Origin: Candidatus Phosphoribacter baldrii
GTDB taxonomy: Bacteria > Actinomycetota > Actinomycetes > Actinomycetales > Dermatophilaceae
Direction of reading: 5' to 3'
DNA length: 64,000 nt
Assembly: GCA_016704565.1 (NCBI GenBank)
Contig: JADIZV010000003.1
Coordinates: forward strand, 91,869 to 155,868
Content: a report on this DNA, generated by a model with database tools, continued
The DNA itself: not shown here

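Follow-up and report, generated by a model that had tools for sequence, protein, structure and literature searches.

A recount of the window confirmed every start coordinate of the preliminary description: the octamer CGGCATAC occurs 55 times on the + strand and its reverse complement GTATGCCG 47 times, giving 102 copies in 64,000 bp of 69.5% G+C. Base composition predicts 2.3 copies for both strands, Markov models of orders 1 to 3 predict 1.2 to 4.0, and 100 dinucleotide-preserving shuffles yielded 1.10 ± 1.18 copies with a maximum of 5. No other 8-mer is as frequent in the window, the next independent one reaching half its count, and none has as high a z-score at Markov orders 1 to 3; the remaining strongly enriched 8-mers are the word displaced by 1 or 2 bases. 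The higher expectation at Markov orders 4 to 6 (27 to 98) has a single cause: sub-words like GCATA are almost never found elsewhere. The genes called by GC3 hold 81 copies, compared with 4.0 ± 1.9 after a shuffle preserving each protein and global codon usage and 1.6 after a shuffle of codon order. The word thus remained the top 8-mer, in large excess, under the codon- and dinucleotide-aware nulls that had been suggested as a check. Enrichment over an empirical background (1.36 Mb of word-free loci) is 96-fold, and the signal is unusually strong.

The sequence around the copies is loosely biased, with R at −1 in 89/101, S at +1 in 83/101 and T at −2 never, and each flank position carries <0.5 bit. 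Flanks so nearly free of information indicate a free word and no part of a longer repeat unit, as originally proposed; together with the indel-free, in-place substitution described below, they rule out a REP or MITE nature. A contrast case of a true dispersed repeat is found in a Nocardioides MAG contig (L036, JAFMQY010000018.1), where a 22-bp palindrome, TGCGGTTTGG-NN-CCAAACCGCA, is present in 19 clustered, intergenic copies (for example at 3772-3813, 6395-6477 and 8717-8773); this repeat is REP/BIME-like and unrelated to the word.

The strands are used in balance (55 versus 47 in the window, and equally in 22 other loci), copies within genes are sense in 42 cases and antisense in 38, and density is ∼1.5 per kb within genes and ∼1.85 per kb outside called ORFs, in agreement with the earlier statement that copies lie about equally on both strands, in genes of either orientation and in spacers. 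The strand tests rule out a polar role of the Chi or KOPS type. Spacing in the window is near random (CV 0.88 vs 0.99, P = 0.11), which argues against periodicity. Neighbouring words ≤120 bp apart are inverted in 13 of 17 cases; close pairs are not in excess in the window (5 versus 6.3), and a role as terminator was rejected on this ground.

When ORFs were taken from stop to stop with unrefined starts, the word occupied all six frame/orientation classes in window genes: nCG-GCA-TAC (22 copies), nnG-TAT-GCC-G (19), nnC-GGC-ATA-C (12), nGT-ATG-CCG (12), CGG-CAT-ACn (8) and GTA-TGC-CGn (7). Four of these copies (52.8 to 53.1 kb) belong in or before the M50 peptidase gene and not in MetH, which leaves the picture unchanged. 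The MetH ORF itself (48982-53697, − strand) is open for ∼300 codons upstream of the annotated start; at 1571 aa, compared with 1269 to 1274 aa in MAG annotations, it overlaps the divergent M50 peptidase gene, and the over-long frame is a typical high-GC long-ORF artefact. The word forces the use of the rarest codons of the genome, holding 63% of ATA, 36% of GTA and 21% of TAT. Occurrence in all frames, rarest-codon use and the codon-aware shuffles all speak against a peptide or codon explanation.

How strongly the word is favoured can be read from the peptide positions of window proteins at which it could be encoded synonymously. It is used in 81 of 114 such positions (71%), namely in 22/24 for [SPTA]-A-Y, 8/9 for R-H-T, 19/26 for x-Y-A-[VADEG], 8/11 for V-C-R, 12/19 for [CRSG]-M-P and 12/25 for x-G-I-[LPHQR]. 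The corresponding proportion is 65% in Knoellia, 43% in loci L004-L006, 15% in the MAG loci L002-L003, 3% in Intrasporangium and Janibacter together and 1.4% in proteins of control actinobacteria. Under a simple mutation–selection–drift reading this would correspond to an odds ratio against the controls of ∼170, or log-odds of ∼5. The compatible peptides are themselves 2.4 times as frequent as in the controls (6.4 versus 2.7 per 1000 codons), with an excess of 5-fold for R-H-T, 18-fold for V-C-R and 3-fold for [SPTA]-A-Y; amino-acid sequences have thus been altered to suit the word.

By gene content (Pfam annotation of ∼40 ORFs) the window is ordinary actinobacterial chromosome, with genes for the ARC/Mpa ATPase, a Pup-ligase family protein, MetH, MoaA, CysS, cyanophycin synthetase, peptidase S51 and GlgC- and GlgA-like enzymes; an Rfam scan of the window returned one tRNA-Leu and nothing else. 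Exact-protein look-up led to an uncultured lineage known from several independent assemblies (GCA_016708855.1, GCA_963852335.1, GCA_009612815.1, a JGI metagenome and an ENA MEGAHIT contig), with 98.2 to 99.9% DNA identity to the window. In ARC, amino-acid identity is 71 to 79% to the nearest named relatives, Pedococcus, Intrasporangium, Knoellia and Janibacter, and up to 86% to uncultured MAGs. As the words are also present in independent short-read metagenome contigs, JGI assemblies and isolate genomes, a sequencing or assembly artefact, such as nanopore errors at methylated sites, is excluded. Among the ∼40 ORFs no candidate gene for a reader of the word was found: their functions are housekeeping except for a PD-(D/E)XK nuclease and an SSB paralogue, and these two were rejected because word-free relatives keep them too.

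After tRNA-Leu(GAG) (31018-31102) comes a stretch of slightly lower G+C (31290-35100; 0.65 versus 0.70) whose small genes include those for an HTH protein, a HigB-like toxin and DUF6924. This stretch may represent a small integrated islet, yet words occur in it at ∼1 per kb. Elsewhere, 11329-17638 forms a nitrogen-storage polymer locus of an activated-sludge or soil actinobacterium, with a second Mur-ligase/TPR fusion protein (11329-13722, +), cyanophycin synthetase (13742-16642, −) and the cyanophycinase-like peptidase S51 (16685-17638, −).

The origin of the copies was followed by aligning MetH, ARC and the Pup-ligase gene, codon by codon, with their counterparts in relatives. At word positions the relatives have near-matches (CGGCCTAC, CTACGCCG, GTCTGCCG, GTACTCCG and ACGCGTAC), from which the word is separated by 1 to 3 substitutions (C>A, C>G, C>T, T>G, A>G) and by no indels. 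Since the substitutions are of all kinds, the process is aimed at the complete word rather than following a single mutational route, and an origin of the Vsr/VSP type (T>C only) or by pure deamination is excluded. Neither the window (42 versus 36 expected, with CGGCGTAC set aside) nor 145 kb of relatives (70 versus 72) is enriched in one-mismatch words, and the benefit of the word is all-or-none. The ratio of perfect plus one-off copies to perfect copies is 1.35, within the range of 1.21 to 1.45 for DUS (PMC3630211).

Conservation at orthologous positions was another check raised in the preliminary description. Between genomes, words coincide in position at about double the rate of ordinary 8-mers in the identical alignments. 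Between the compared loci L004 and L005, 9/10 words are shared (8-mer baseline 0.46); the figures are 13/18 from L009 to L011 (0.39), 11/15 from L009 to L010 (0.32) and 6/8 from L009 to the window (0.19). Both retention and parallel gain where positions are saturated may contribute to this sharing. In a set of seven near-identical assemblies, a single one of 34 word positions varies: at window 55666-55673 the window and four others have CGGCACAC and two (L081 and L086) have CGGCATAC, pointing to recent loss or gain through a T/C transition. Variable columns inside words number 1 against 4.1 expected, which with seven assemblies is not significant alone.

The neighbour CGGCGTAC, normally the commonest one-mismatch form (0.30 per kb in controls), is missing from the window (0 versus 22), mostly due to a separate GTAC signal. 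Across the whole window and L081-L086, GTAC is depleted ∼6-fold (0.52 per kb, where other high-GC actinobacteria have 2 to 5 per kb); CGTACG (4 versus 82 expected, a ratio of 0.05), CTCGAG (34 versus 147, 0.23) and GCCGGC (150 versus 332, 0.45) are also depleted, and this pattern is the classical signature of restriction-site avoidance. The GTAC depletion is largely species-specific and independent of the word. As a cause of the word, a deamination sink from CGGCGTAC to CGGCATAC or GTAC avoidance is quantitatively insufficient and unspecific: the deficit of ∼22 is five times below the excess of ∼114, the siblings CGNCGTAC are nearly as depleted in relatives (0.26 to 0.30, compared with 0.16) and their ATAC derivatives do not become more frequent, some word-rich genomes have near-normal GTAC, and the word accounts for 71% of the GTAT/ATAC tetramers of the window. 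The substitution, codon and GTAC tests reject neutral mutation and R-M avoidance.

The copies are not confined to the window, as density stays at ∼1.5 per kb for 9.5 kb past its end and other loci are word-rich. Equal enrichment in related genera, which the preliminary description had put forward for examination, did not hold. Around the ARC gene, compared in 80 other species, the word is clade-restricted: 1.6 words per kb in the window, 1.0 in MAG L001, 0.8 to 1.1 in three Knoellia species, 0.74 in L005, 0.55 in Pedococcus, 0.46 in L006, 0.37 in L003, 0.23 in L002, 0.05 in Janibacter, 0 in Intrasporangium zincisolvens and about 0 to 0.1 in 60-odd loci of Nocardioides, Streptomyces, Kribbella and others. 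A metagenome scan for inverted word pairs added 24 contigs from other genomic regions (G+C 0.66 to 0.73, 0.8 to 2.4 words/kb, P from 1e-4 to 1e-36), and the word-rich loci total 34 (454 kb, partly redundant). Within these there is no gap longer than chance allows that would mark a word-free ‘foreign’ island. The same scan of IMG/VR gave chance matches alone, with no viral contig convincingly enriched among the matches listed. An unrelated mid-GC organism (L278, OCHL01001400.1, 50% G+C, arabinofuranosidase genes) has 5 CGGCATAC in 6.2 kb, 2 of them present by ascertainment, against 0.18 expected; with P ∼1e-3 among ∼95 chance loci, this is a borderline case of chance or independent occurrence.

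Related lineages differ in the word they carry. In the MAG loci L002 and L003 (CAVWQU010000012.1 and CAVVZM010000004.1) the core GCATAC is 15-fold enriched (37 versus 2.5) and is preceded equally by C or G (C in 18/37 versus 2/110 in the window, P = 5e-11), with a CG prefix in just 13/37; their dialect S-GCATAC-C-S is 49-fold enriched. The core is absent (0 to 0.05 per kb) from the Intrasporangium, Janibacter and Nocardioides loci. The I. zincisolvens locus (L007, NZ_JAWIIL010000006.1), from a sister genus, has no CGGCATAC and instead a hyper-abundant palindromic octamer, GACGCGTC, with 15 sites in 21.7 kb (for example 587, 3836, 3860, 4214 ... 20982), 18-fold over controls; 15 of its 19 ACGCGT sites are flanked G..C, and GACGCGTC represents a HIP-like word in an actinobacterium. 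In metagenome contig L324, 5 words lie within 100 bp (848-948) between tsf and a LytTR two-component operon, including a perfect hairpin with a 21-bp stem, ATTGAGCGGCATACGGATCCG-GTT-CGGATCCGTATGCCGCTCAAT, immediately behind the EF-Ts stop codon; two extended hairpins of a similar kind occur in L325 (5104/5118 and 7555/7571).

The force behind these patterns acts on the DNA duplex at the level of the word, free of orientation and blind to frame, and it acts in several related lineages with a specificity that differs by lineage. Such behaviour implies a protein that reads the word sequence-specifically. The main rival explanation for its spread is a HIP1-like, methylation-linked or nucleoid-structure word. 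In its favour are the length of 8 bp, the conservation of positions, the core that stays constant while the outer bases vary, and the palindromic sister word. The Nanomotif supplement lists no methylation motif containing GCATAC. We consider the HIP1-like reading rather unlikely; a directly selected chromosomal binding site seems less probable still. We tentatively favour spread by the DUS/USS model, with a probability of about 0.4. In this model, word-bearing conspecific DNA would be preferentially bound and taken up (or transferred), and recombination of the incoming DNA would push the word to saturation. Evidence for this model comes from the non-palindromy and the equal use of strands, the 1 to 2 copies per kb, the dialects that share a conserved core, the effects on the proteome, the scarcity of one-off copies and the terminator-like word hairpins in the related loci L324 and L325. 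Recent work proposes that HIP1 itself is an uptake signal, so the two readings may converge. Micrococcus luteus, of the same order, undergoes natural transformation that requires the Flp pilus (PMC4322843). The full-text literature covered, which takes in few subscription journals, gave no description of the word, its core or related concepts, in keeping with the earlier remark that no equivalent was described in Actinobacteria, and the indexed literature does not mention the MAG accessions of the lineage. The word appears to be the first genome-wide iterated recognition word in Actinobacteria.
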